A DNA stretch of 54,315 nt. Source: Eubacteriales bacterium (GTDB taxonomy: Bacteria > Bacillota > Clostridia > Oscillospirales > CAG-272). Every line of letters starts with the position of its first letter. Position 1 is the first letter of the stretch. The notes under the pieces were generated by a model. That model had not been told where the DNA came from, made no database searches, and worked only from the letters and a program-made list of their open reading frames with translations. Shown one piece after another: positions 39,975-54,315 of this stretch. The DNA is taken from positions 1-54,315 of the forward strand of contig JAZODX010000152.1 of the NCBI GenBank assembly GCA_045597265.1. Reading direction: 5' to 3'. A program made the position numbers and the translations under genes.

Positions 39975-40118
39975 AAAGGGAGTTCGCCTGATTATTCCTT
40001 AAAATTTGCAAAATGGGAATAATAAATTGACGTTTTTTTGAAAAATATATTGGCATTGTTCCTAAAATTTGATATAATGTATCCGGTGAGATTGTATTTG
40101 GCCCGGGAGGATTCGGTT

Positions 40119-41024
40119 ATGGAATATATTAAGGTATCAAAAGCTGCTGAAAAATGGGGGATTTCCGCGCGGCGCGTTCGCGCTTTGTGTGCGGCGGGCA
40201 AGATTGACGGTGTAATCCGCCAAGGAAGTCTGTATATGATTCCTGCTTCTGTTGCAAAGCCTGCGGATGGGAGAAAGGGCAGAGCGGGGTACCTGCATGA
40301 CCTGGAAAAGAAGCGTGATCTTCTTTCGGCAAGGCCTCTCCTGACGCCCGGAGAGGTCGAAAGACTTGCCCATGAGTTTATGGTTGATTTTACCTACAAC
40401 TCCAATGCGATCGAGGGGAATACGCTCACTTTGAAAGAAACTGCATTGGCTCTTGAAGGAATGACAATCGACCAAAAGCCTTTGAAGGATCACCTTGAAG
40501 CCGTAGGGCATCGGGATGCCTTCCTCTATGTTCAAGAGATGGCAAAAAACGAAGTGGAGCTTTCGGAATATGTGATCAAGAATATCCACGCGCTTGTGTT
40601 GATGAACCGTCCCGAAGATAAGGGGCAGTATCGTCGTATTCCCGTTCGCATTATGGGGGCATATACCGAGCCCGTTCAGCCGTATCTGATTGCACCTAAG
40701 ATGAACGAATTACTTGTTGCCAACGAGGAGCGCAAACGCAGAATGACGACGGTTGAGCGCGTTGCCCGTTTTCATCTTGAATTTGAGGGGATACACCCCT
40801 TCGTTGATGGAAACGGCAGAACGGGGCGCCTGATTCTCAATCTCGAATTGATTCGCAACGGATTCCCGCCAATCAACGTAAAATTTACCGATCGCAAGCG
40901 TTACTACGATGCTTTTGATGCCTTCTATCGTGACGGTGACGCAGGAAAAATGATAGACTTGATTGCAGAATACATGGACAAAAGACTTGACGAATATTTG
41001 AATGTGTTGGATGATAACCAATAA
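40119..41024 (+). CDS. Fic family protein (AMPylase-type) with an N-terminal HTH
   Basis: The Fic motif HPFVDGNGRTGR is present, together with an inhibitory-helix-like SNAIEG upstream and an N-terminal excisionase/MerR-like HTH (ISARRVRALCAAGKI). The ATG at 40119 follows a GGGAGG site. Confidence 0.85.
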   Translation: MEYIKVSKAAEKWGISARRVRALCAAGKIDGVIRQGSLYMIPASVAKPADGRKGRAGYLHDLEKKRDLLSARPLLTPGEVERLAHEFMVDFTYNSNAIEGNTLTLKETALALEGMTIDQKPLKDHLEAVGHRDAFLYVQEMAKNEVELSEYVIKNIHALVLMNRPEDKGQYRRIPVRIMGAYTEPVQPYLIAPKMNELLVANEERKRRMTTVERVARFHLEFEGIHPFVDGNGRTGRLILNLELIRNGFPPINVKFTDRKRYYDAFDAFYRDGDAGKMIDLIAEYMDKRLDEYLNVLDDNQ

Positions 41025-41183
41025 AAGCAAAACAAAGGGAACAACCAATCCTTTGTGAAATGTAAACATTTTGTTAACACTTTCGCGCGCGTGTATCGTA
41101 AAGGCAATGTTGTCGCATGTTATATTTTCCAATTTCATCTTTGCCTGTACAATATAAATATTATGGTACACGGAGGCAAGATC

Positions 41184-41549
41184 ATGGTGGATTATACGGC
41201 GATAGGGAAACGGATACGCAAATACCGCGAGAATATGCACATGACGCAGTACGATCTTGCGATGACGATCGGGATGTCCAATACGACGATAAGCCACATT
41301 GAGTGCGGGCAGGGCAAGCACGAATTTGCGACGTACGTCAAAATTGCGAATGCGCTGAACGTCTCGATGGATATGCTGCTGTGTGACAACCTTCGGGTTT
41401 CCGCGCCGACCTATCACGCGGAGCTGAGCGAAATTTTGCTTGCCTGCACGGGCGAGGAGCTGCGATTTATCCGCGAGGCGATTCCGGCTCTGCTTAGCGC
41501 CTACCGCTGTGCACGCGGGGATCAGATTAAAACAGTTGGAGAAAAATGA
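41184..41549 (+). CDS. XRE-family HTH transcriptional regulator
   Basis: Contains IGKRIRKYRENMHMTQYDLAMTIGMSNTTISHIECG. The ATG at 41184 follows a GGAGG site. Confidence 0.8.
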   Translation: MVDYTAIGKRIRKYRENMHMTQYDLAMTIGMSNTTISHIECGQGKHEFATYVKIANALNVSMDMLLCDNLRVSAPTYHAELSEILLACTGEELRFIREAIPALLSAYRCARGDQIKTVGEK

Positions 41550-41550
41550 G

Positions 41551-42117
41551 ATGCTGGATTTGACGTTTTATTTATCCACTCTGGACGACGATGCGGAACG
41601 GGACAAGCTTTCCCTGATCTACGAGCGCTATTATGATTCCATGCGCTACGCGGCGCGGCGTTACGTCGGGCAATACGGTGCGGACGAGGACGCGGTGCAC
41701 GAAGCGATTTTGAAGATCATTGATCATCTCGATAAAATTGACCTTGGCGACGATCTCGGCGCACGCTGTTTCGTTTGTACCGTTGCGGCGAACAAGGCGA
41801 AGGATTGGTTGAAGAAGGAGAAGAAATTCCAGATATCGGACATTGACAACGCGGTGCTCTACGACGAGGACGTCGACAGTCTGCCGATGGAAGCGCTGCT
41901 GAGCAAGGAGGGCTATCAGCAGCTGATCGACTGTATTGGTTCGCTGGGCGAAATTTACCGCGACGTGTGTATGCTGAAATACGTCAGCCATCTCAAGGAA
42001 AGGGAGATTGCCGAGGTACTGGAGATCAGCCCGAAAACCGTCAGCGTCCGCATCGTGCGTGCACATCGGATGTTGCGGGCCAAAATCATGGAGAAAATCC
42101 CGGAGGGCGTGAAATGA
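41551..42117 (+). CDS. Sigma-70 family (ECF-like) RNA polymerase sigma factor
   Basis: Region 2 (DEDAVHEAILKIIDHL) and region 4 (REIAEVLEISPKTVSVRIVRAHRML) are both recognisable. The start lies 1 nt after the XRE gene's stop codon. Confidence 0.8.
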   Translation: MLDLTFYLSTLDDDAERDKLSLIYERYYDSMRYAARRYVGQYGADEDAVHEAILKIIDHLDKIDLGDDLGARCFVCTVAANKAKDWLKKEKKFQISDIDNAVLYDEDVDSLPMEALLSKEGYQQLIDCIGSLGEIYRDVCMLKYVSHLKEREIAEVLEISPKTVSVRIVRAHRMLRAKIMEKIPEGVK

Positions 42118-42791
42118 TTAATCGGAAGGTTGATGAAGCCGTATTTGAGCTGCTGCTGACGCACGCGTTCCGCGATGCGTATGCAAGGGAGACCGAGCGG
42201 GCAGAGGCCGAAGGGGAAGCCTGCCCCGCGCCGTCTGCGGCGCACCGCAGGCAGGAGAAGCGGTATTACCGAAGAAAACGGCGAGGGACTCTGCGCGTGT
42301 CCACGGTGCTGGCACGGACGGCGGCCTGCCTTTTGGCCTTTATGGGCATCGGCTTTGGCGCCATGCTCTTCTCCCAGCCCGTCCGCGCGGCGGTTTGGGA
42401 CACGGTGATCACGGTGTTTGAGAAATATTTCGTCTTTGACGCACCCACAGAAGAACCTGCACTCGTCCTCGACGGGCATACCTTCGGGTATATCCCGGAG
42501 GGGTTTGAGTTGGTGGATTCTCAGGTGCTTGAGCGAGTGAGTCGATACCAATTCAGCAATGGCAGTGAAGAATTTGTCATCGGCTTCTCGTCGTCAGACG
42601 CGATGGCATTACAATGGAATAGCGAAGATGGCGCTTTGTCCAAAATTGAGCTTAACGGAATAGAAGCGTACTGGAAGGAATCCGAAAATGGATACGGTGT
42701 GCTGTTCTGGACGGCAAATGGCCAAACAATTTATGTTCAGGGAAATATTGGTCAATTCACTATAAAAAATATTGCAAAAAATATTTCATAA
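42114..42791 (+). CDS. Single-pass membrane protein with a DUF4367-like C-terminal domain (candidate anti-sigma factor)
   Basis: An ATGA overlap joins it to the sigma gene. A transmembrane helix (TAACLLAFMGIGFGAMLF) follows an Arg-rich cytoplasmic part, and the extracytoplasmic domain reads FGYIPEGFELVD... Confidence 0.65.
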   Translation: MINRKVDEAVFELLLTHAFRDAYARETERAEAEGEACPAPSAAHRRQEKRYYRRKRRGTLRVSTVLARTAACLLAFMGIGFGAMLFSQPVRAAVWDTVITVFEKYFVFDAPTEEPALVLDGHTFGYIPEGFELVDSQVLERVSRYQFSNGSEEFVIGFSSSDAMALQWNSEDGALSKIELNGIEAYWKESENGYGVLFWTANGQTIYVQGNIGQFTIKNIAKNIS

Positions 42792-42800
42792 TTTGTAGTA

Positions 42801-42851
42801 AAACCCTCCTTTGAATCGTTATATGAGTGAAAACGATTCAAAGGAGGGTTT
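42801..42851 (+). promoter_or_regulatory. 20-bp perfect hairpin whose 3' arm contains the ribosome-binding site of the next ORF
   Basis: AAACCCTCCTTTGAATCGTT-(11-nt loop)-AACGATTCAAAGGAGGGTTT. The AAGGAGGG sequence lies within the 3' arm and the ATG is at 42856. Confidence 0.75.
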
Positions 42852-42855
42852 CGTT

Positions 42856-43287
42856 ATGAAACAAAGAAAAAAAGTTTTCCATTTAATGAGTATTTGGCTG
42901 ATGATTGTATGTGTCACGTTTTCTGCAAGCGCCGCTGTCATTGACAATAGTGTAGCACCGCTTTGGGACAACACCGAGATGCTTTTCACATCGCACGATT
43001 ATATTGAGGATGGTGAAGCGGAATGTGTAGTTGAAATCGTCGCAAAGTATGGTGCTACCCGGATTGACAACATCGACATTGTATATTATGCAGAAGGATT
43101 TTCTTCCGGTTGGGAAGAACTTGCCAGATGGGAAGATCTATACGTTAATGATGATTACTTTTTCTGGTATGACTATGTCCCAGGTGTCCAAACAGGGCGA
43201 GAGTATCGCCTGACCGTTTCTTTCGATGTGCACTATAACGGAACGGTTGAGCACATTGAAAGCACGCACGACAGATTATACGAATAA
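42856..43287 (+). CDS. Small secreted protein of unknown function
   Basis: MKQRKKVFHLMSIWLMIVCVTFSASA forms a signal peptide. The mature part is about 115 aa. Confidence 0.65.
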   Translation: MKQRKKVFHLMSIWLMIVCVTFSASAAVIDNSVAPLWDNTEMLFTSHDYIEDGEAECVVEIVAKYGATRIDNIDIVYYAEGFSSGWEELARWEDLYVNDDYFFWYDYVPGVQTGREYRLTVSFDVHYNGTVEHIESTHDRLYE

Positions 43288-46163: not shown

Positions 46164-47249
46164 ATGAAAAAAATGTTCTTGTCGCACAGCGACGCCGCAC
46201 TCAGAAACAGAAATATCGTTTTACGGTATATCCGGGAAAACGCCCCCGTTTCCAGAACCGGAATCTGGGAAAATCTTGATATGAGCCGTGCATCGGTCAC
46301 GCAGATTATTAAGCAATTCCAGGAAAACGGTATGATCGTTGACTGTTTTCACGGCAGATCCACCGGAGGAAGAAAGCCGCTGTACATTGAGTTCGAGGGG
46401 AAAAATATGATTTTCTTCGCCTTCGACTGGATAACCAAAAATCTCTATCTGATGAATCTCAACGGCGATATTCTCTATGAGGCATACCAAAAACTGTCGG
46501 AGGGCATCTCCCCTGCCGCCTTTGCCAAAACGTTGAAAAAGCATATACGCGAGATGATCGACAAGGATATCTGCGAGAGAGAAAAAATCGTCGGGCTGGT
46601 TTTGGCTCTGCCGGGAATCATTCACGCGAACGAATGCAAACTGCTCCTCTCGGTTGAGCTTGGCTGGAAGGACGTCGATATCGCCGCGCTTTTTGCGGAT
46701 TTGTTCGGCGAGCGTGTTTTTCTGGAGAGAACCATCAATCTTCTGGCACTGGCCGAAACAACGGTTCGCAAAAAGAACAATGGGGCATCCCACGTTCAGC
46801 TCTTTATCTTCGATCATACCGGAATCGGTGTGGCCACCGTCATTCATGGGAATATCCAGCATGGGCTCCGCTGTATGCACGGTGAGCTCGGCCATATCAA
46901 GCTCCGCTCGGATGAGCCGTGCTCCTGCGGTCAGCGAGGCTGTCTTGAAGCAATCATCAAAAAGCTGATCGCGGAGAGCGGCGGCGTCATCACCGACGAA
47001 ATTCTCGATTATTTTGCCATCGGCATTTCCACGGCGGTCAACGTCTGCGATACAGACGTCGTTCTGACCGGCTCCTATGTGGAAAAGCTGAATGAAACGC
47101 AGAAGAAAAAGCTCAGAAATTCCGTTTTCTCCAAAGTAACCAGTCCGGATTCCCGAAATTTTGAGATTGATTTTCTCTATAACAGCCGCCAAATGGCGCA
47201 GCTTGGTCTCTGTACCTATATGTTTGACTGCTGTTTCCCCACCAAATAA
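46164..47249 (+). CDS. ROK family transcriptional regulator
   Basis: An N-terminal winged HTH (NRNIVLRYIRENAPVSRTGIWENLDMSRASV) and the ROK zinc motif CSCGQRGCLE are present. I take the ATG at 46164 as the start. Confidence 0.85.
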   Translation: MKKMFLSHSDAALRNRNIVLRYIRENAPVSRTGIWENLDMSRASVTQIIKQFQENGMIVDCFHGRSTGGRKPLYIEFEGKNMIFFAFDWITKNLYLMNLNGDILYEAYQKLSEGISPAAFAKTLKKHIREMIDKDICEREKIVGLVLALPGIIHANECKLLLSVELGWKDVDIAALFADLFGERVFLERTINLLALAETTVRKKNNGASHVQLFIFDHTGIGVATVIHGNIQHGLRCMHGELGHIKLRSDEPCSCGQRGCLEAIIKKLIAESGGVITDEILDYFAIGISTAVNVCDTDVVLTGSYVEKLNETQKKKLRNSVFSKVTSPDSRNFEIDFLYNSRQMAQLGLCTYMFDCCFPTK

Positions 47250-47318: not shown

Positions 47319-48299
47319 TTATTTCACGATACCGCTGAGCAAATAGCGCATTTTCTCCTCTGCACCCTTTGCATTGATCATAATGGCATCCTCAAGATTA
47401 CCTGCAAACGGCATAGCGGAGCGAAGCGCACCGTATACCAGCGGCTCTGCATCCAGATAGTCAAAGCCCTCCTCGACAATCCGTCTGACGATCTCGGAGC
47501 CGACTGAAAAGCCTGCCGTGGCTTCGTGCACAACGAGAAGTCTTCCGGTCTTCTGCACCGAGCGCAGAACCGTCTCGAAGTCCATCGGAACCAGACAGCG
47601 CAGATCAATCAGTTCAATTGAAGCGTTGGGAATTGCCGCCATTGCACGGCGGCAGGTCTGCACACCGAGCCCGTAGGTAACAACCGTCAAATCGCTTCCC
47701 TCGGTGACAACATTCGCCTTGCCCAGCTCAATGGTATATTCCTCCTCGGGCATTTCCATTTTATCATAGTACAGGCTTCTGTTTTCCATGAAAATGCAGG
47801 GCGTATCGTCTCTGATTGCACTCTTGAGCAGCCCCTTGGCATCGTATGCGTTCGAGGGAACGATTACCTTAAAGCCGGGAATCTGACAGAACCATCCCTC
47901 AAGAGACTGCGAGTGCTGTGCCGCTTCACGCGAACCCATACCGTACTGCGTGCGGACGACCATAGGCACCTTGAACTGCCATCCGGACATCAGATCCGAT
48001 TTTGCCGCCTGATTGACCAGCTGATCCATACACGCCGTGATAAAATCCATATACATGATCTCGGTAACCGGACGCAGTCCCGCCATCGCTGCACCGATGC
48101 AGAGACCGGTGAAGCCTGCCTCCGAGATCGGCGTGTCCATGGCGCGTATCTGCCCAAACTTTTCGTAAAGTCCCTTCGTGGCGTACCATACGCCTCCGTA
48201 TTCGCCGACGTCCTCCGCAATGACGAAAACGCGGCTGTCTCTTTCCATTTCTTCATGCAATGCCTCATTGATTGCATCGAGCATATGTATCTTTCTCAT
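47319..48299 (-). CDS. 2-oxoacid (acetoin/pyruvate) dehydrogenase E1 component, beta subunit
   Basis: 326 aa, transketolase-like pyrimidine-binding and C-terminal domains. The start overlaps the E1-alpha stop. Confidence 0.9.
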   Translation of the reverse strand: MRKIHMLDAINEALHEEMERDSRVFVIAEDVGEYGGVWYATKGLYEKFGQIRAMDTPISEAGFTGLCIGAAMAGLRPVTEIMYMDFITACMDQLVNQAAKSDLMSGWQFKVPMVVRTQYGMGSREAAQHSQSLEGWFCQIPGFKVIVPSNAYDAKGLLKSAIRDDTPCIFMENRSLYYDKMEMPEEEYTIELGKANVVTEGSDLTVVTYGLGVQTCRRAMAAIPNASIELIDLRCLVPMDFETVLRSVQKTGRLLVVHEATAGFSVGSEIVRRIVEEGFDYLDAEPLVYGALRSAMPFAGNLEDAIMINAKGAEEKMRYLLSGIVK

Positions 48300-49270
48300 A
48301 ATGCGTATCTCTCCTTGATTCGACTTAAAAAGGCCTCCGCATCGGGACGCGGTGCGGCTTTGCCGAACGCAATCGCCTCTTCAATCTCCGCATCAACCTC
48401 AGCGCGAATTTGGGTAATCTCTTTCTCAGACAAAATCCCCTTTTCCACGAGCCGTTCGCTGTATACCTTGATCGGATCGTGGTTGGCCCATTTTTCGACG
48501 ACATCCTTCGGACGGAAGACGGGAAGGTCAAAAATGACACGGCAATGACCTTCAACGCGATAGGTCTTGAACTCGATCAGTGTCGGACCTTCGCCTCTGC
48601 GTGCCCGTTCAATTGCTTCCCTGCTCTTTTCGATACAGTCATCCAGATCATTTCCGTCTGCCATAACACCGGGCATATCATATGCCGCCGCACGCTCGAA
48701 AATATCGGGATTGGACAGCGTTTTGTAAGAGGGCGTCGTTGCGGCAAAAAGATTGTTCTCGCAGGCAAAAATAACGGGAAGCTTCCAAAGAGACGCCATA
48801 TTCATTGCTTCATGGAACCAGCCTTCGTTTGAAGCCCCCTCGCTGAAGAAGCAAACGGTTACCTTGCCGTCACCGAGATACTTGGAGGCGTAAGCCGTAC
48901 CGATGGACAGCGTCAGGCCGCCGCCGACAATACCGTTTCCGCCCATAAAGCCTCTCTCCGCATCGAACATATGCATCGAACCGCCCATACCGTGCGATAC
49001 ACCGGCTTCCTTACCCATGACCTCGGCGAACAGCTTTTTCAAATCAAGTCCCTTCGCAATGGCATGGCCGTGCCCGCGATGCGTAGAAAACACATAATCA
49101 TCCTGATTCAGATTTACACAAACGCCAAGGGCAACCGCTTCCTCACCCGTATAGCAATGAACCGCACCCTCCACTAAACCTTCATTGGCCAAATCCTTGA
49201 TCACACGCTCAAATTCCCGCATGACAATCAAGGTTTTCAGATTCTGTCTGCACGTTTCGTACTGAGACAT
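48296..49270 (-). CDS. 2-oxoacid (acetoin/pyruvate) dehydrogenase E1 component, alpha subunit (TPP-dependent)
   Basis: 324 aa with a TPP-binding motif region (GEGASNEG, ENNLFA). Confidence 0.9.
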   Translation of the reverse strand: MSQYETCRQNLKTLIVMREFERVIKDLANEGLVEGAVHCYTGEEAVALGVCVNLNQDDYVFSTHRGHGHAIAKGLDLKKLFAEVMGKEAGVSHGMGGSMHMFDAERGFMGGNGIVGGGLTLSIGTAYASKYLGDGKVTVCFFSEGASNEGWFHEAMNMASLWKLPVIFACENNLFAATTPSYKTLSNPDIFERAAAYDMPGVMADGNDLDDCIEKSREAIERARRGEGPTLIEFKTYRVEGHCRVIFDLPVFRPKDVVEKWANHDPIKVYSERLVEKGILSEKEITQIRAEVDAEIEEAIAFGKAAPRPDAEAFLSRIKERYAL

Positions 49271-49402: not shown

Positions 49403-50368
49403 TCAAAAAAGCAGACGAAGAATATCCCCGGCAATCCGACTGTCTCCGAGGCCCCGCAAACGCTCTTCTACCGCTTCTCCGGTAAACGCAGCACCGACGA
49501 GGCAGGCGCGGATCTGCTCTGCCCTTTCCCAATTCATTGAATCGGTGAAAACAGCGGCCTCTTTGATCTCTCCATGCACAATCTCAAGCCGAAGTGCGAT
49601 TTGCCCCTCGGCAAATTGTCCTTCATTCTGATAGGTACAGGGAAAGGCATTGGCATCGATGTAGTTATCCGAGGCGTATTCCGCGGCGAGCGGAGCGATT
49701 TCTGCGATATCTGCCGGCGGCAGGAATTCCGCCCGTATGCCCCAAACCCGGGAAAAGGCCGCGATCATTCCCTCGCGCAGTCGCGCGCAGCTAAGCGTCG
49801 GGCAGAGCTCGCACAAATTAATCACCCTGGCGCTGACCGATTTAACCCCCTTGCTCTCCAGCTTTGCGCTCGGCGGCGTCAGGATTTTCTGCATCCGCCC
49901 GATATCGGCGGAAACCAGAAGAGTTCCGTGATGATAGGCCTTTTCCGCCGAGGAGAAGAATGCATTCCCCGAAAATTTTCTCCCCGCGGCGTAAATATCA
50001 TTCCGCCCTCCGAGCGCCGTTTCAATTCCAACGGCCGCACACGCACTTTGGATCACTTCAATATTTTTATCAAGGCTGTAATTTTCGCGGGACGCGATAA
50101 ACGTAAAGTTCAAATTACCCAGATCGTGAAAAACCGCACCGCCGCCCGAGGATCTGCGGGCAATTTTCACCCCCTCCTGTCGGGCAAGCGTGCGATCAAA
50201 CTCCATATCCGGGTTCTGATTTCGCCCAATTACAACCGTACTTTCGTTTTGCCATAAATAAAGTATATATTCATCCGCCGAAACCCGGTCAAAGAGATAT
50301 TTCTCAATTGCAAGATTTTCGTACACATCAAAGGAATCGGAAAGATAAACGCTCGCTTTTGTTACCAT
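49403..50368 (-). CDS. Lipoate-protein ligase
   Basis: 321 aa, LplA-type (RRSSGGGAVFHDLGN, KFSGNAF). Confidence 0.85.
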   Translation of the reverse strand: MVTKASVYLSDSFDVYENLAIEKYLFDRVSADEYILYLWQNESTVVIGRNQNPDMEFDRTLARQEGVKIARRSSGGGAVFHDLGNLNFTFIASRENYSLDKNIEVIQSACAAVGIETALGGRNDIYAAGRKFSGNAFFSSAEKAYHHGTLLVSADIGRMQKILTPPSAKLESKGVKSVSARVINLCELCPTLSCARLREGMIAAFSRVWGIRAEFLPPADIAEIAPLAAEYASDNYIDANAFPCTYQNEGQFAEGQIALRLEIVHGEIKEAAVFTDSMNWERAEQIRACLVGAAFTGEAVEERLRGLGDSRIAGDILRLLF

Positions 50369-50408
50369 AAAACGCCCATTTCCTCCTGCTTTTCTTGTTT
50401 ATGCACCC

Positions 50409-50487
50409 ATTATACCATACCCGGAACAAATGTCAAGACAAAAAAAACCGCTTTCATCTTGACAAGGAAAGCAATCTGTGATACCAT
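50409..50487. promoter_or_regulatory. Divergent back-to-back promoters for the lipoate ligase (minus) and E2-E3 (plus) genes
   Basis: Plus strand: TTGACA(50459-50464)-17-TACCAT(50482-50487), preceded by TG. Minus strand: TTGACA (revcomp at 50431-50436)-16-TATAAT (revcomp at 50409-50414). Confidence 0.55.
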
Positions 50488-50556
50488 TATCTTAATTCAT
50501 TCAGAAAATAAAGTCTTGTTTTTTCTTTTATTCCATTTTATTTGGAGGAATTTCAT

Positions 50557-53136
50557 ATGGCAACTGCAGTGTTAATGCCCAAAAGCGGCCCCACGGTGGA
50601 AAGCTGTGTGCTCGGAAATTGGGAGAAAAAAATCGGTGATCAGGTCAAAAAGGGAGACATCCTCTTCACCTATGAAACCGATAAAACCGCATATGAATGC
50701 GTCGCACATGAGAATGGCGTTTTACTCGCTGTTTTTTATAACGTCGGTGACGAGGTTCCCGTCCTGACCCCCGTCTGTGCAATCGGAGAACCGGGAGAGG
50801 ACGTCTCTGCCCTGCGTCCCGGCGAAGAAGCCCCGTCCGCCGTGCCGGACGAGGCACCGCAGGCAGAGGTTATTTCTGCCGATGTTCGGGACAACAATTT
50901 TACCCGTATTTCGCCGAGAGCAAGAAAATTCGCGCGGGAAAACAGAATTGATATTACCCTGGCAACCCCGACCGGGCCGATGGGCAGAATCATTGAACGC
51001 GACCTGCAGAAATGTCTTTCCGCGCCTGCCCCCTCTGCCGGGTCGCTTGAATATGAGGATGTAAAGCTAAGCGGTATCCGCAGAACCATCAGCCGGACGA
51101 TGCATACTTCCCTTTCCTCCATGGCACAGTTGACCCATAATATGTCCTTTGATGCTGCTGCACTGCTTGCCTGCAGAAAGCAGTTCAAGGGAAGACAGGA
51201 TGCACACGCCGCAATCACCCTCGGGGACATGATTCTCTATGCGGTTTCTCGGCTTCTGCCGAAGTATCCTGAGCTGAATGCCCATCTGCTTGAGCAGGAT
51301 ACGATTCGCTGTTTTAAGCATGTTAACCTCGGCGTTGCTGTGGATACACCGCGTGGACTGATGGTCCCGACCATCTTCTGTGCGGAGCAAAAAAGTCTGC
51401 TTGAAATCTCCGAGGAGGTCAAGACACTCGCCGATGCCTGCAGAAAAGGAACCATTTCTCCCGACCTGCTCAGCGGCAGCAGCTTTACGGTCAGCAATCT
51501 CGGCAGTCTCGGCGTTGAATCCTTTACCCCCATCATCAATCCGCCCCAGACGGCAATTCTGGGTGTATGCGGAATTACAGAGCGGGTAAAGAAAAACGAA
51601 GACGGCAGTCTTGGCAGTTATTCTGCCATGACCCTCAGCCTGACTTATGACCACAGAGCAATTGACGGCTCGCCCGCTTCCCGCTTTGAGCGCGAGCTGT
51701 GTGAAATGCTCGAGCACTTCGGCGATATCACGCGCGAATCGTCGAAAAAGTGTTTCACCCCGGCCCCGGACGGTATATATGATCTCCTCATCATCGGCGG
51801 AGGGCCCGGCGGCTATCACTGCGCGGAACAGGCGGCAAAAAACGGCATGAAGGTTGCCCTGTTCGAGGAAAAGGCGCTCGGCGGAACCTGTCTCAATGAA
51901 GGCTGTATCCCGACCAAAACGTTGCTCAATTCTGCCAAAATGTACCGTCACGCCACCGAGGGTGAAGCCTTCGGTGTTACGGCAGAGGGCGTCTGTTATC
52001 ATCACGATACGGTAATCGACAGAAAAAACAATGTGGTAAAAAGCCTGGTTTCGGGTATCGCCGCCAGCATGCGTGCAAGCAAGGTGGAGGTGGTTTCCGC
52101 GACAGCAACAATAAAAGGAAAGCATAAAGACGGCTTCTCTGTTCTGGCAGGCGGAAAGACCTATACGGGTGAAAGACTGGTCATTGCAACCGGCTCGACT
52201 GCGTCCGTCCCCCCCATCAACGGCCTGGAGAAAGCACTTTCCGACGGCTTTGCCGTTACGAGCAAAGAAATCCTTGATGAAAAGGCCCTCCCCTGTCATC
52301 TTGCCATCATCGGCGGCGGTGTAATCGGCCTTGAAATGGCCTATTATTTCGCCTCGGTCGGCACACGGGTCACCGTGATAGAAAGCACCGCCAAGCTCGC
52401 CGGCGGAACCGACGATGACATCTGCCGCGTGCTCACCGATGCACTTACCGCACGGGGCGTTGTATGCAAGCTTTCCGCGCAGGTGCTCGAAATCGGCGAC
52501 GCAGGCATTGTTTATACCGAAAACGGCGAGAAGTGTACACTTCCCTGTGATAAGATTCTGCTCTGCACCGGAAGACGCCCCCGCACCGAGGGAATCGGAC
52601 TTGAAGCGCTTGGCCTTGAGATGGACAGAGCAGCGATCAAGACAAATCTGCATCTCGAAACCGGCACAGAAAACGTATACGCCATCGGTGACTGCAACGG
52701 CAAATCCATGCTTGCCCACACCGCGTACCGCGAGGCAGAGGTTGCGGTCAACCATATGCTGGGGGGCAATGACAGCATGCGCTACGATGTCATTCCCTCG
52801 GTCATTTATACCGATCCCGAAGTCGCCTGCGTCGGTCTGACTCTCGCAGAAGCCAAAGCACGCGGACGAAATGCACGGGAGATCAAGCTTCCCATGGCCT
52901 ATTCGGGCAGATACGTCGCAGAAACGGTTGACGGAAAGGGTATGATCAAGCTGGTTGTAGATACCCGGAGCAATACAATTCTGGGCTGCCACATCATCGG
53001 CGCATATGCCTCTGAAATTGTGATGACGGCAACGATGATGATTGATACCGAGCTGACCGCCGACCGCCTCAGAAAACTGGTTTTCCCGCACCCCACCGTA
53101 TCCGAAATCATCAAGGAAGCCATTTTCAAAATTTAA
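50557..53136 (+). CDS. Fusion protein: dihydrolipoamide acyltransferase (E2) plus dihydrolipoyl dehydrogenase (E3)
   Basis: This is a single ORF. It contains a lipoyl domain (ETDKTAYE), a subunit-binding domain (ISPRARKFARENRIDI), the E2 catalytic motif DHRAIDG, a linker of about 20 aa, and then E3 (YDLLIIGGGPGGY, the redox disulfide GGTCLNEGCIPTK, and a C-terminal HPTVSE). The ATG lies 8 nt after GGAGG. Confidence 0.85.
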   Translation: MATAVLMPKSGPTVESCVLGNWEKKIGDQVKKGDILFTYETDKTAYECVAHENGVLLAVFYNVGDEVPVLTPVCAIGEPGEDVSALRPGEEAPSAVPDEAPQAEVISADVRDNNFTRISPRARKFARENRIDITLATPTGPMGRIIERDLQKCLSAPAPSAGSLEYEDVKLSGIRRTISRTMHTSLSSMAQLTHNMSFDAAALLACRKQFKGRQDAHAAITLGDMILYAVSRLLPKYPELNAHLLEQDTIRCFKHVNLGVAVDTPRGLMVPTIFCAEQKSLLEISEEVKTLADACRKGTISPDLLSGSSFTVSNLGSLGVESFTPIINPPQTAILGVCGITERVKKNEDGSLGSYSAMTLSLTYDHRAIDGSPASRFERELCEMLEHFGDITRESSKKCFTPAPDGIYDLLIIGGGPGGYHCAEQAAKNGMKVALFEEKALGGTCLNEGCIPTKTLLNSAKMYRHATEGEAFGVTAEGVCYHHDTVIDRKNNVVKSLVSGIAASMRASKVEVVSATATIKGKHKDGFSVLAGGKTYTGERLVIATGSTASVPPINGLEKALSDGFAVTSKEILDEKALPCHLAIIGGGVIGLEMAYYFASVGTRVTVIESTAKLAGGTDDDICRVLTDALTARGVVCKLSAQVLEIGDAGIVYTENGEKCTLPCDKILLCTGRRPRTEGIGLEALGLEMDRAAIKTNLHLETGTENVYAIGDCNGKSMLAHTAYREAEVAVNHMLGGNDSMRYDVIPSVIYTDPEVACVGLTLAEAKARGRNAREIKLPMAYSGRYVAETVDGKGMIKLVVDTRSNTILGCHIIGAYASEIVMTATMMIDTELTADRLRKLVFPHPTVSEIIKEAIFKI

Positions 53137-53203
53137 CCCAAAGCGCGCCGCGCATCAATCGCGATATCCCGATCGGAGCAATCACACAAACAGAACCCGA
53201 AAA

Positions 53204-53242
53204 GAAAATCCATCACGGACACAATGTCTGTGATGGATTTTC
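53204..53242. terminator. Bidirectional terminator with an 18-bp stem
   Basis: GAAAATCCATCACGGACA-CAA-TGTCTGTGATGGATTTTC (one G-U pair), flanked by A-rich and T-rich sequence and located between convergent genes. Confidence 0.8.
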
Positions 53243-53256
53243 TTTCTCTATTTGAT

Positions 53257-54315
53257 TTACTCGCCGACGGGCAAAAATGAATTGCCAATGAGCCTGTAGA
53301 AATTCGAAACCGTCCGGTCGGCTTCATTTCGGGAGATTTGAAAAAGGCCGCGTTCGGCATCGTAAACGATCCACTGCCCGGGAGACATCGCTGCGGGATC
53401 GACGGTTGTCTGAACCGGCAATTCCCCCTGCAGACGGATAACCGTTACCGATCCCATCCAGCTTGCGAGAATGCTCTGTGTCCCGTTAGCACTGAGGGAT
53501 ATCTCACTCACCGACCCGTAAGCCTCACAGTAGACATCCGGGATGCCATCCGTGAGAAAATAGTAGGTGGCTTCCGGGTGAGTCCCCCCGTGAATAATTT
53601 TGACGGCATCTCTGCCGAGCACGTCCGTGACCTTCAGAATATCGATCACGCGGAAATTTTCATACTGTCCCTGCGTCAATTCGTTCATGCGGATGATATT
53701 TCCATCCTTTTCCCAAGCGGTGAAGGTTTGCATATCCGCCTTCCGATACACGAGATATCTGACACCGTCGATCACGCGCTCACCGAGAATCTGCACTGCC
53801 TCGCCGGCCTCTGCCGCTTCTCCGAGAACGGGAATCAACGCCGCTTCCGTATTGAGCGCGGGAATAGCCCACACCGCATCCGGCTTTGCGGATTGTGCGG
53901 CCTCGTATGCGTCGAACTCTGCTTTAGTCACGCTGTGATCCGCGATATAGTACGTGATTGACGCAAGAGTACCGTCACCTTCCCGCCGTGCAAGCACCGT
54001 TTTCGTGCAGGTATCCCCTTCAAAATCAAGCTTGCAAATCGACGCATTGAAGGCACTGCTTGATGAGGTATAGACTCCGTCGGCTTTCAAGCCGTTAAAC
54101 CCTCTGTACGGGAATTCGTGCGCGTACACGGCATTTCCGTAGCGATGCAAAACCAGAAAACCGACATAATCATTCGTGCCGTACCCCAGCCAAAGAACCA
54201 TTTCGGGATCTCTGTCGTCGTTCAGATCAAGGATGGTGTACTTCTTGACGGAATAATCGGTTTTCGCTTTGTATTCTGAAAGAAGCATACCTTCTTTTGA
54301 TGACGCATCATAGAA
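53257..54315 (-). CDS. Hypothetical protein, 5'-partial at the window edge
   Basis: The reading frame stays open upstream of the Met at 54288 all the way to the window end. I recognise no motif. Confidence 0.6.
   Translation of the reverse strand, partial: FYDASSKEGMLLSEYKAKTDYSVKKYTILDLNDDRDPEMVLWLGYGTNDYVGFLVLHRYGNAVYAHEFPYRGFNGLKADGVYTSSSSAFNASICKLDFEGDTCTKTVLARREGDGTLASITYYIADHSVTKAEFDAYEAAQSAKPDAVWAIPALNTEAALIPVLGEAAEAGEAVQILGERVIDGVRYLVYRKADMQTFTAWEKDGNIIRMNELTQGQYENFRVIDILKVTDVLGRDAVKIIHGGTHPEATYYFLTDGIPDVYCEAYGSVSEISLSANGTQSILASWMGSVTVIRLQGELPVQTTVDPAAMSPGQWIVYDAERGLFQISRNEADRTVSNFYRLIGNSFLPVGE

Follow-up and report, generated by a model that had tools for sequence, protein, structure and literature searches.

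A probable intact E2-E3 fusion of a 2-oxoacid dehydrogenase complex, apparently of independent origin, in gut Clostridia

Introduction

In the canonical pyruvate dehydrogenase (PDH) complex of Gram-positive bacteria, dihydrolipoyl dehydrogenase (E3) forms a dimer of its own and competes with E1 for the PSBD, or peripheral-subunit-binding domain. A covalent union of E3 with the dihydrolipoyl acyltransferase (E2) has reportedly been seen before: a title by Powles and Rawlings in Microbiology in 1997 is said to announce an “unusual E2-E3 subunit fusion” in Thiobacillus (Acidithiobacillus) ferrooxidans. Our search of the available literature found no paper on a 2-oxoacid dehydrogenase E2-E3 fusion, and its matches to “E2-E3 fusion” concerned ubiquitin enzymes or unrelated fields. 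Among the best 60 of 167 PDB matches, no solved structure has both halves in one chain. Here we describe an E2-E3 fusion gene at positions 50557..53136 (+ strand) of contig JAZODX010000152.1 (assembly GCA_045597265.1), from an Eubacteriales bacterium of the CAG-272 lineage. The whole stretch of 54,315 nucleotides (nt) that was analyzed is referred to as the window.

The end of E2 to which this E3 is attached has been studied elsewhere. According to the preprint by Bruch et al. (bioRxiv 10.1101/2020.07.24.212647), inter-trimer “knobs and sockets” contacts are formed by the 3-10 helix at the E2 C-terminus, and actinobacterial E2p is locked as trimers by an insertion of three residues ahead of that helix; the authors also ask whether a leftover C-terminal tag explains a trimeric crystal form.

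In combination, the results make it likely, with good confidence, that the gene is a real and intact E2-E3 fusion, producing one chain that serves a lipoate-dependent complex of the pyruvate/acetoin-dehydrogenase type, and that it was independently derived. The number and position of E3 dimers in 2-oxoacid dehydrogenase complexes are still debated, and the fusion is a ready-made test case because its E3 is hard-wired to the E2 C-terminus, the element that builds the core.

The fused gene and its protein

The open frame spans 50542..53136 (+). It encodes 864 amino acids (aa) if counted from a TTG and 859 aa if counted from the ATG at 50557, which aligns with the start Met of all full-length homologs. 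The features of the gene are as follows.

50557..53136 (+), fused E2-E3 gene: dihydrolipoyl acyltransferase joined to dihydrolipoyl dehydrogenase, 859 codons plus stop
50569..50781 (+), lipoyl domain: residues 5-75 (PF00364, 42.1 bits, cut-off 22.1)
50905..51009 (+), PSBD: residues 117-151 (PF02817, 40.8 bits, cut-off 23.7)
51049..51720 (+), E2 catalytic (acyltransferase) domain: residues 165-388 (PF00198, 229.5 bits; DHRAIDG, H366)
51721..51777 (+), E2-E3 junction: residues 389-407, GDITRESSKKCFTPAPDGI, about 19 residues comprising a remodeled E2 C-terminal helix, then coil
51778..53133 (+), complete E3: residues 408-859 (TIGR01350, 446.1 bits)

Five Pfam domains occur in the order Biotin_lipoyl, E3_binding, 2-oxoacid_dh, Pyr_redox_2 and Pyr_redox_dim, all above their curated cut-offs. 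Within the E3 half, Pyr_redox_2 covers residues 408-727 (236.7 bits) and Pyr_redox_dim (PF02852) residues 746-855 (100.2 bits), and residues 408-857 pass the NCBIfam equivalog TIGR01350, lipoamide_DH, with 446.1 bits against a cut-off of 408.8. An earlier note on this DNA, made from the sequence alone, had described a single uninterrupted open reading frame (ORF) with a complete E2 and a complete E3, and the domain searches bear this out. The motifs that it quoted (DHRAIDG, ...ELCEMLEHFGDITRESSKKCFTPAPDG, YDLLIIGGGPGGY, CLNEGC and HPTVSE) are all found in the translation. With its PSBD and whole E2 core, the protein is a full E2-E3 fusion, as proposed there, and not a lipoyl-E3 of the P64k type, in which E3 carries a lipoyl domain only.

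All the residues expected of the two enzymes are in place. The lipoylatable lysine K43 lies within ETDK, and E40-T41-D42-K43 is invariant in all four proteins of the fused clade described below. The E3 half has an FAD-binding GxGxxG at 414-419, a redox disulfide at C445/C450, an NAD-binding GxGxxG at 586-591 and the H845/E850 dyad within HPTVSE. Across 17 fused proteins, D365, H366 and G371 of the E2 domain are invariant, as are C445, C450, G414/G416/G419, G586, H845, P846 and E850 of E3.

Split relatives and the reality of the junction

Related E2 and E3 genes are overwhelmingly split. No fused E2-E3 was present among the genomes of 60 relatives; in nine of these, E2 and E3 share a frame and are separated by 1-2 stops. 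With each species represented by one genome, a further scan recovered 38 loci, 45-68% identical, from ruminant and gut Clostridia metagenome-assembled genomes (MAGs), and the junction was readable in 36. A stop directly follows the E2 tail (...LENFTALLAK*) in every one of these 36. The E3 ATG is in the same frame in 25, typically four codons on, and in another frame in 11; in the closest split relatives the spacer between the E2 stop and the E3 ATG is about 12 nt. The listing for the window's family (401 genomes) has 104 match rows. The junction is spanned in 79, and the only one of these without a stop is the window itself (G000). Whether orthologs are fused or split was a question raised by the earlier note, and these counts answer it.

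Two candidates for further fusions, G116 and G240, in which the E3 N-terminus falls within open frames of 930-941 aa, proved to be split. L067-L069, considered as possible nearest split relatives, are GC-rich loci in which about 100 nt separate E2 from E3, and they yielded nothing more. The same-frame arrangement of E2 and E3 (25/36 junctions; 78/104 rows; for example L017:7168-7290) exceeds the one-third expected by chance, in genomes that are kin and not independent.

Given one stop and about four codons between genes in the same frame, a fusion is only a few mutations away. The same layout means that a single error, a lost base or a miscalled stop, could join two ordinary genes and so mimic a fusion. 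Protein P0005 (JGI, 856 aa, 45% identical) looks like such a case. It was rejected as a fifth fused relative, given that unrelated sequence stands in place of its E2 C-terminus, DHRxxDG included, up to the beginning of E3; a frameshift or an assembly error probably produced it, which makes it an example of an artifactual fusion. For the window's gene we regard an artifact as extremely improbable, on four grounds. First, its junction is five codons longer than the tail, stop, spacer and start of the split layout together, has a different E2 tail and lacks an E3 start codon, so it is neither a one-base change nor a single stop-to-sense change of the present layout. Second, a junction of the same length occurs in three other clusters from other assemblies. 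Third, a contig from another run, at 1% divergence, crosses the junction without a gap. Fourth, DHRAIDG is intact in the window's translation.

The three clusters were found by a word-indexed search of 5.8 billion proteins, in which the best 120 matches comprised the query, four proteins at 100% coverage (P0002-P0005) and 115 E2-only proteins. P0002, P0003 and P0004 are 861-865 aa long and 64-66% identical to the window's protein at 100% coverage. Members of the P0003 cluster occur on five and two contigs, and those of P0004 on two. In these three and the window's protein the junction is equal in length and homologous, with the pattern LE(N/H)F....F..A..G.(Y/F)D; it reads LEHFGDITRESSKKCFTPAPDGIYDLL in the window and LENF(T/N)(D/S)F..(E/G)......FKKA..GA(Y/F)D(L/V)L in P0002-P0004. 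F400, A403 and G406 are conserved in all four.

For the nucleotide-level check, contigs from four public runs were aligned to window positions 50400-53300, and no insertions or deletions were listed over this interval. One contig of run X3 (record 19, 677 nt) bridges the junction, matching 51654-52330 with 7 mismatches and 0 gaps; three of the substitutions are synonymous and four nonsynonymous, and the 1% divergence argues that the contig comes from another strain. The missing base or missing stop that the earlier note had wanted excluded thus finds no support in the bridging contig, the absence of indels or the three clusters with a same-length junction. Contigs from an RNA library (gut metatranscriptome run X1) match 51209-51439, 52422-52582 and 52804-53057 without mismatch, a weak hint that the fusion gene is expressed.

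Origin of the fusion

We constructed a tree of 47 rows from E2 plus E3, concatenated for the split loci, with 871 columns kept. Left out were L045, L014, L027, L038, L048 and L052, which are incomplete or mis-parsed, and nine distant fused proteins. The four fused proteins group in a single clade (SH-aLRT 100). Its sister is a set of 29 split loci (87), and the joint clade has a support of 100. The remaining 14 rows are a split outgroup, and one change of state suffices. Because the junctions of the closest relatives are all split and the fused proteins form one clade, the fusion is derived. The window's E2 and E3 sequences belong to a lineage whose operons encode a DeoR regulator, E2, E3 and a fused E1 (“DeoR-E2-E3-fused-E1”), being sister to 29 such loci with a joint support of 100.

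The comparison shows that the adjacent E2 and E3 genes of an “LplA / DeoR-E2-E3-fused-E1” operon were joined in a small clade of gut Clostridia. E2 thereby lost its stop codon and E3 its start codon, and the spacer of about 12 nt disappeared together with the ribosome-binding site in it. The E2 tail differs as well: FTALLAK in the split relatives is FGDITRE in the window and F(G/T/N)(D/S)(I/F)(T/L/V/I) across the fused clade. Given that the split sister genes are only one stop and about 12 nt apart, the fused and unfused forms are directly comparable.

Fused E2-E3 proteins in other lineages

The earlier note had implied that a full E2-E3 fusion is unique, and this did not hold. A HMMER scan of 1.84 billion representatives revealed, among the best 150, 13 further proteins with both halves (30-37% identity), three of them N-terminally short. 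All 13 keep DHRxxDG, CxxxxC and HPxxSE, and their junctions differ in length and sequence. Both halves also occur in one chain at 17 of 80 metagenome loci, which are 26-30% identical to the window's protein and have a common junction, ...WMGP..IPEGDWDYDVVVIGGG. One of these loci, L138, has the operon order E1alpha, E1beta and a 1019-aa fusion with a PSBD. Two fused clusters in the ESM Atlas, with 82 and 83 members, are mostly from Pseudomonadota. The fused families occur in sediment bacteria, Pseudomonadota and Asgard archaea, and independent families with a PSBD and adjacent E1alpha and E1beta genes support the viability of the design.

The window's clade appears unrelated to these families by descent. 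In an E3-domain tree of 41 rows it is nested (support 100) among 27 stand-alone E3s, apart from all 10 distant fused proteins, which implies at least two fusion events. The E3 tree, the identity of 26-30% and the unrelated junctions do not bear out common descent with the proteobacterial and sediment family. Judged by these comparisons, the window's fusion is independently evolved, and the same design is known in other microbes, where it is structurally unstudied.

The distant fused proteins carry source names such as “2-oxo acid dehydrogenase subunit E2” (Promethearchaeota and Helarchaeota MAGs), “hypothetical protein” (Bathyarchaeota) and “dihydrolipoamide dehydrogenase.” As such proteins are named only for E2 or only for dihydrolipoamide dehydrogenase, metabolic reconstructions of these MAGs would miss one activity.

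A single chain in the source genome

Internal re-initiation giving a free E3 was considered and rejected. Codons 385-415 lack an in-frame ATG, GTG or TTG. M384, within the final long helix of E2, is not conserved, the other three fused proteins having N or T at this position. The source genome (228 contigs, completeness 74.85%) has no match to PF02852 (Pyr_redox_dim) other than the fusion and no other match to PF00198 (2-oxoacid_dh) above the cut-off, and GcvH was not found there. The fusion is probably obligate.

We predicted the structure of the fusion with AlphaFold2 from an alignment of 70 rows (mean pLDDT 92.9, pTM 0.66). Both halves are modeled with confidence, and disorder is seen in the classical linkers, 91-113 and 159-164. 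At the junction the model has a helix (388-395), a coil (396-407) and then the first E3 strand (408-413), and the block 391-400 has a mean pLDDT of 65.

This block is the sole low-confidence stretch between two well-folded halves, and the data are compatible with a protease site in it. If the chain were cut there, ordinary separate E2 and E3 with canonical assembly would result. Pfam searches of the neighboring genes revealed no protease, and no known processing motif was seen at the locus. The junction length and F400, A403 and G406 are conserved in the four fused proteins, a constraint that is not specific to cleavage, and the junctions of the distant fused families are quite different. We consider cleavage quite unlikely and favor a chain that stays in one piece.

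Neighboring genes and the E1 module

The earlier note had placed the genes for E1 and a lipoate ligase next to the fusion gene in divergent orientation, and their positions and Pfam matches confirm it. The neighbors and the signals around the fusion gene are as follows.

49403..50368 (-), lipoate-protein ligase LplA: Pfam; TIGR00545, 292.5 bits (cut-off 280)
48296..49270 (-), E1alpha, the ThDP-binding subunit: PF00676, 272 bits; the only strong E1_dh match in the source genome
47319..48299 (-), E1beta: Pfam; NF006667, 348 bits (cut-off 321)
46164..47249 (+), regulator or kinase of the ROK family: convergent with the E1 genes; start placed at the Met where the alignment begins
50409..50436 (-), promoter-like site of lplA-E1alpha-E1beta: TTGACA-16-TATAAT, a 12/12 consensus match
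50459..50487 (+), promoter-like site of the fusion gene: TTGACA-17-TACCAT with TG, assigned by consensus match alone
50544..50549 (+), ribosome-binding site: GGAGGA, as read from the sequence, 7 nt ahead of the ATG
53201..53245 (+), terminator-like hairpin: about 65 nt past the stop, with a stem of 20 bp

An inverted repeat, TGTCAAGA...TCTTGACA, lies at window positions 50431-50464, and its arms coincide with the -35 boxes of the two promoter-like sites, which are divergent. This repeat may be an operator common to lplA-E1 and the fusion gene.

In the split sister loci, LplA (-) is followed by DeoR, E2, E3, an E1alpha-beta encoded as one chain of 821 aa, and an MBL-fold protein; dehydrogenases of the MDR and mannitol types lie close by. 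The divergent position of LplA is common to the window and these loci (the window's LplA is 44% identical). DeoR, the fused E1 and the sugar dehydrogenases are absent from beside the window's fusion gene, and the fused E1 was also not found in the source genome. The window's E1alpha and E1beta are 26% and 34% identical, respectively, to the sister fused E1. In the sister operons, E1 is a single alpha-beta chain of 821-830 aa (E1_dh, Transket_pyr and Transketolase_C), as at L017:8680-11142 (+), L064:1-2193 (-) and L065:4920-7001 (+); component fusions of different kinds thus recur in this group of complexes.

The window's E1 genes have close relatives elsewhere. About 80 of the 120 E1beta homologs listed are 69-90% identical. 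Of 400 other genomes of the order, nine carry an E1beta relative at 77-86% identity, all of them in two other families, and it was found in none of the 25 sampled genomes of the window's own family. Five of the nine genomes were checked. They encode E2 and E3 with 49-58% identity, on contigs apart from E1beta; the two are separate genes in G444, G537, G557 and G676, and G755 shows only an E3 fragment. The G444 module (L165:6133-10096) consists of E1alpha, E1beta, an SDR and a convergent ROK gene, whose product is 66% identical to the window's ROK protein. Elsewhere the E1alpha-E1beta/ROK module stands apart from any E2 or E3, next to glycoside hydrolases (GH95, GH43) and an SDR.

This distribution suggests horizontal transfer of the E1alpha-E1beta/ROK module. 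As the E1beta relatives in the sampled genomes fall in other families and the E1 is unlike the sister fused E1, the window's lineage has combined LplA and the fused E2-E3 with a heterologous E1alpha/beta-ROK module. More distant E1beta homologs (59-60% identical) carry the source names “acetoin:DCPIP oxidoreductase subunit beta” and “pyruvate/2-oxoglutarate/acetoin dehydrogenase E1,” which are names only. Pyruvate, acetoin or a related ketone are candidate substrates of the complex.

Several other features were noted. Window positions 40038-43284 have a low GC content (0.48, compared with about 0.57-0.60) and encode a Fic/DOC protein, an HTH_3 regulator and a DUF4367 protein; this is probably an accessory or mobile island. 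The ORF directly downstream of the fusion gene, 53257-54288 (-), encodes 343 aa without a match to a Pfam family. In one sister locus, an RVT_1 (reverse-transcriptase) ORF lies upstream of LplA (L017:2831-3748 (+)) and may be part of a group II intron or a retron.

Predicted E1 docking and consequences for assembly

The PSBD was modeled on an E1beta dimer and is predicted to dock on the window's E1beta. The score was 0.70, compared with 0.40 for the best control; since a like complex has already been solved, passing this test shows likeness to a solved complex. In the calibration, 116 of 157 solved complexes attained this mark, as did 2 of 215 mismatched pairs, counts that hold only roughly here given that our own alignments were used. 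The docking runs agree in at least 88% of contacts, and the pLDDT of the partner is at least 82. The predicted site lies across the E1beta dimer and involves E1beta residues 252, 279-285, 319-320 and 322-324.

By analogy with the families of its parts, the complex would work as follows. E1alpha2beta2 would dock on the retained PSBD and reductively acylate the lipoyl group on K43. The E2 domain, with H366, would pass the acyl group to CoA. The tethered E3 (C445/C450, FAD and H845/E850) would then reoxidize the dihydrolipoyl arm with NAD+. Under this arrangement E2:E3 would be fixed at 1:1, E3 would not compete with E1 for the PSBD, and E3 would not be made separately.

A 1:1 stoichiometry and an altered assembly had been proposed in the earlier note. 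Both are reasonable expectations, given that E3 begins about 12 residues past the helix that, according to Bruch et al., normally makes the trimer-trimer contacts. A dimeric E3 of about 450 residues placed 12 residues after this helix should therefore affect assembly of the core, which would likely differ from the canonical 24- or 60-mer or be cross-braced. We tentatively suggest, as a doubtful possibility, that the E3 dimer replaces or overrides the knob-and-socket contact, giving a C3-C2 lattice or cage in which E2 trimers are bridged at their twofold edges by their own E3 dimers and the PSBDs are left to E1. If true, this would be a trimer-dimer core with no counterpart among the solved 2-oxoacid dehydrogenase complexes, having arisen independently two or more times, and such repeated origin would suggest a selective advantage of a tethered E3.

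Constraint on the fused chain

Several observations weigh against the reading given here. The X3 contig that bridges the junction has a low depth (4.2). The X1 contigs cover both halves and none bridges the junction, and such RNA libraries can contain DNA. A separate E2 or E3 could be encoded in the missing part of the source genome. The replacement of E1 is known from the window only; the close relatives recovered by the metagenome and genome scans were all split. The fused clade is small (four clusters at 90% identity) and its branches are long (0.64 for the window, compared with a median of 0.12). Of the folded domains in this clade the PSBD is conserved least, at 0.60 compared with 0.71-0.75 for the others (four sequences, 35 residues); in the sister clade the PSBD is among the most conserved domains, at 0.93. 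The long branches and the weak PSBD conservation could reflect relaxed rather than altered constraint.

Taken further, the long branches, the conservation of the PSBD and the E2 tail below that of the sister clade, and the rarity of the clade would fit a real and yet neutral or decaying read-through, in which one half or the assembly of the core is compromised. Three points argue otherwise: the fused state has lasted through about 35% amino-acid divergence, over which all catalytic motifs of the two halves stayed invariant; no other E2 or E3 was found in the genome of the fusion, which lies there beside intact LplA and E1 genes; and the same design is maintained in other lineages. Decay thus seems to us a poor explanation, and we favor an intact fusion at work in a complex with the neighboring E1.

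Comparison with known systems

The closest sequences to the window's E2 and E3 (58-68% identical) are in the split “LplA / DeoR-E2-E3-fused E1” operons of gut and rumen Clostridia, which also have a divergent LplA. They differ from the window in having separate E2 and E3 genes, an E1 that is one 821-aa chain, and DeoR, an MBL-fold protein and sugar dehydrogenases.

The closest architecture is that of the E2-E3 fusions of Pseudomonadota. Like the window's protein, these combine a lipoyl domain, a PSBD, an E2 catalytic domain and a complete E3 in one chain, next to E1alpha and E1beta genes. Their E3 has CLWRGC where the window has CLNEGC, and some have two lipoyl domains. In fusions of this type the E1 genes are upstream in the same operon, whereas those of the window are divergent.

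Compared with PDH of the Gram-positive/mitochondrial type, such as that of Geobacillus stearothermophilus (E1alpha2beta2, E2 and E3), the window's system has the same domains and chemistry, and the docking of the PSBD on E1beta is predicted in the same place. The E3 of PDB entry 1EBD (1ebd_A) matches window residues 410-855 with an E-value of 5.4e-72. In the canonical complex the E2 C-terminus is free to form the inter-trimer knob described by Bruch et al., whereas in the window it continues into E3.

Other components of these complexes are known in covalent union. In P64k of Neisseria (PDB 1OJT/1BHY), E3 is joined to an E2-type piece, and 1ojt_A and 1bhy_A match residues 404-853 of the window's protein; unlike the latter, P64k has a lipoyl domain only, without a PSBD and without an acyltransferase core. 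Actinobacterial OdhA/Kgd, in which an E2o catalytic domain is fused to E1o, resembles the window's protein in that two complex components are covalently fused, and differs in the pair, which is E1 with E2. OdhA is not known to have a lipoyl domain. For the core itself, the trimeric E2p of actinobacteria (bioRxiv 10.1101/2020.07.24.212647) provides a precedent, the 24- or 60-mer core being lost there through minor alterations at the C-terminal helix of E2.

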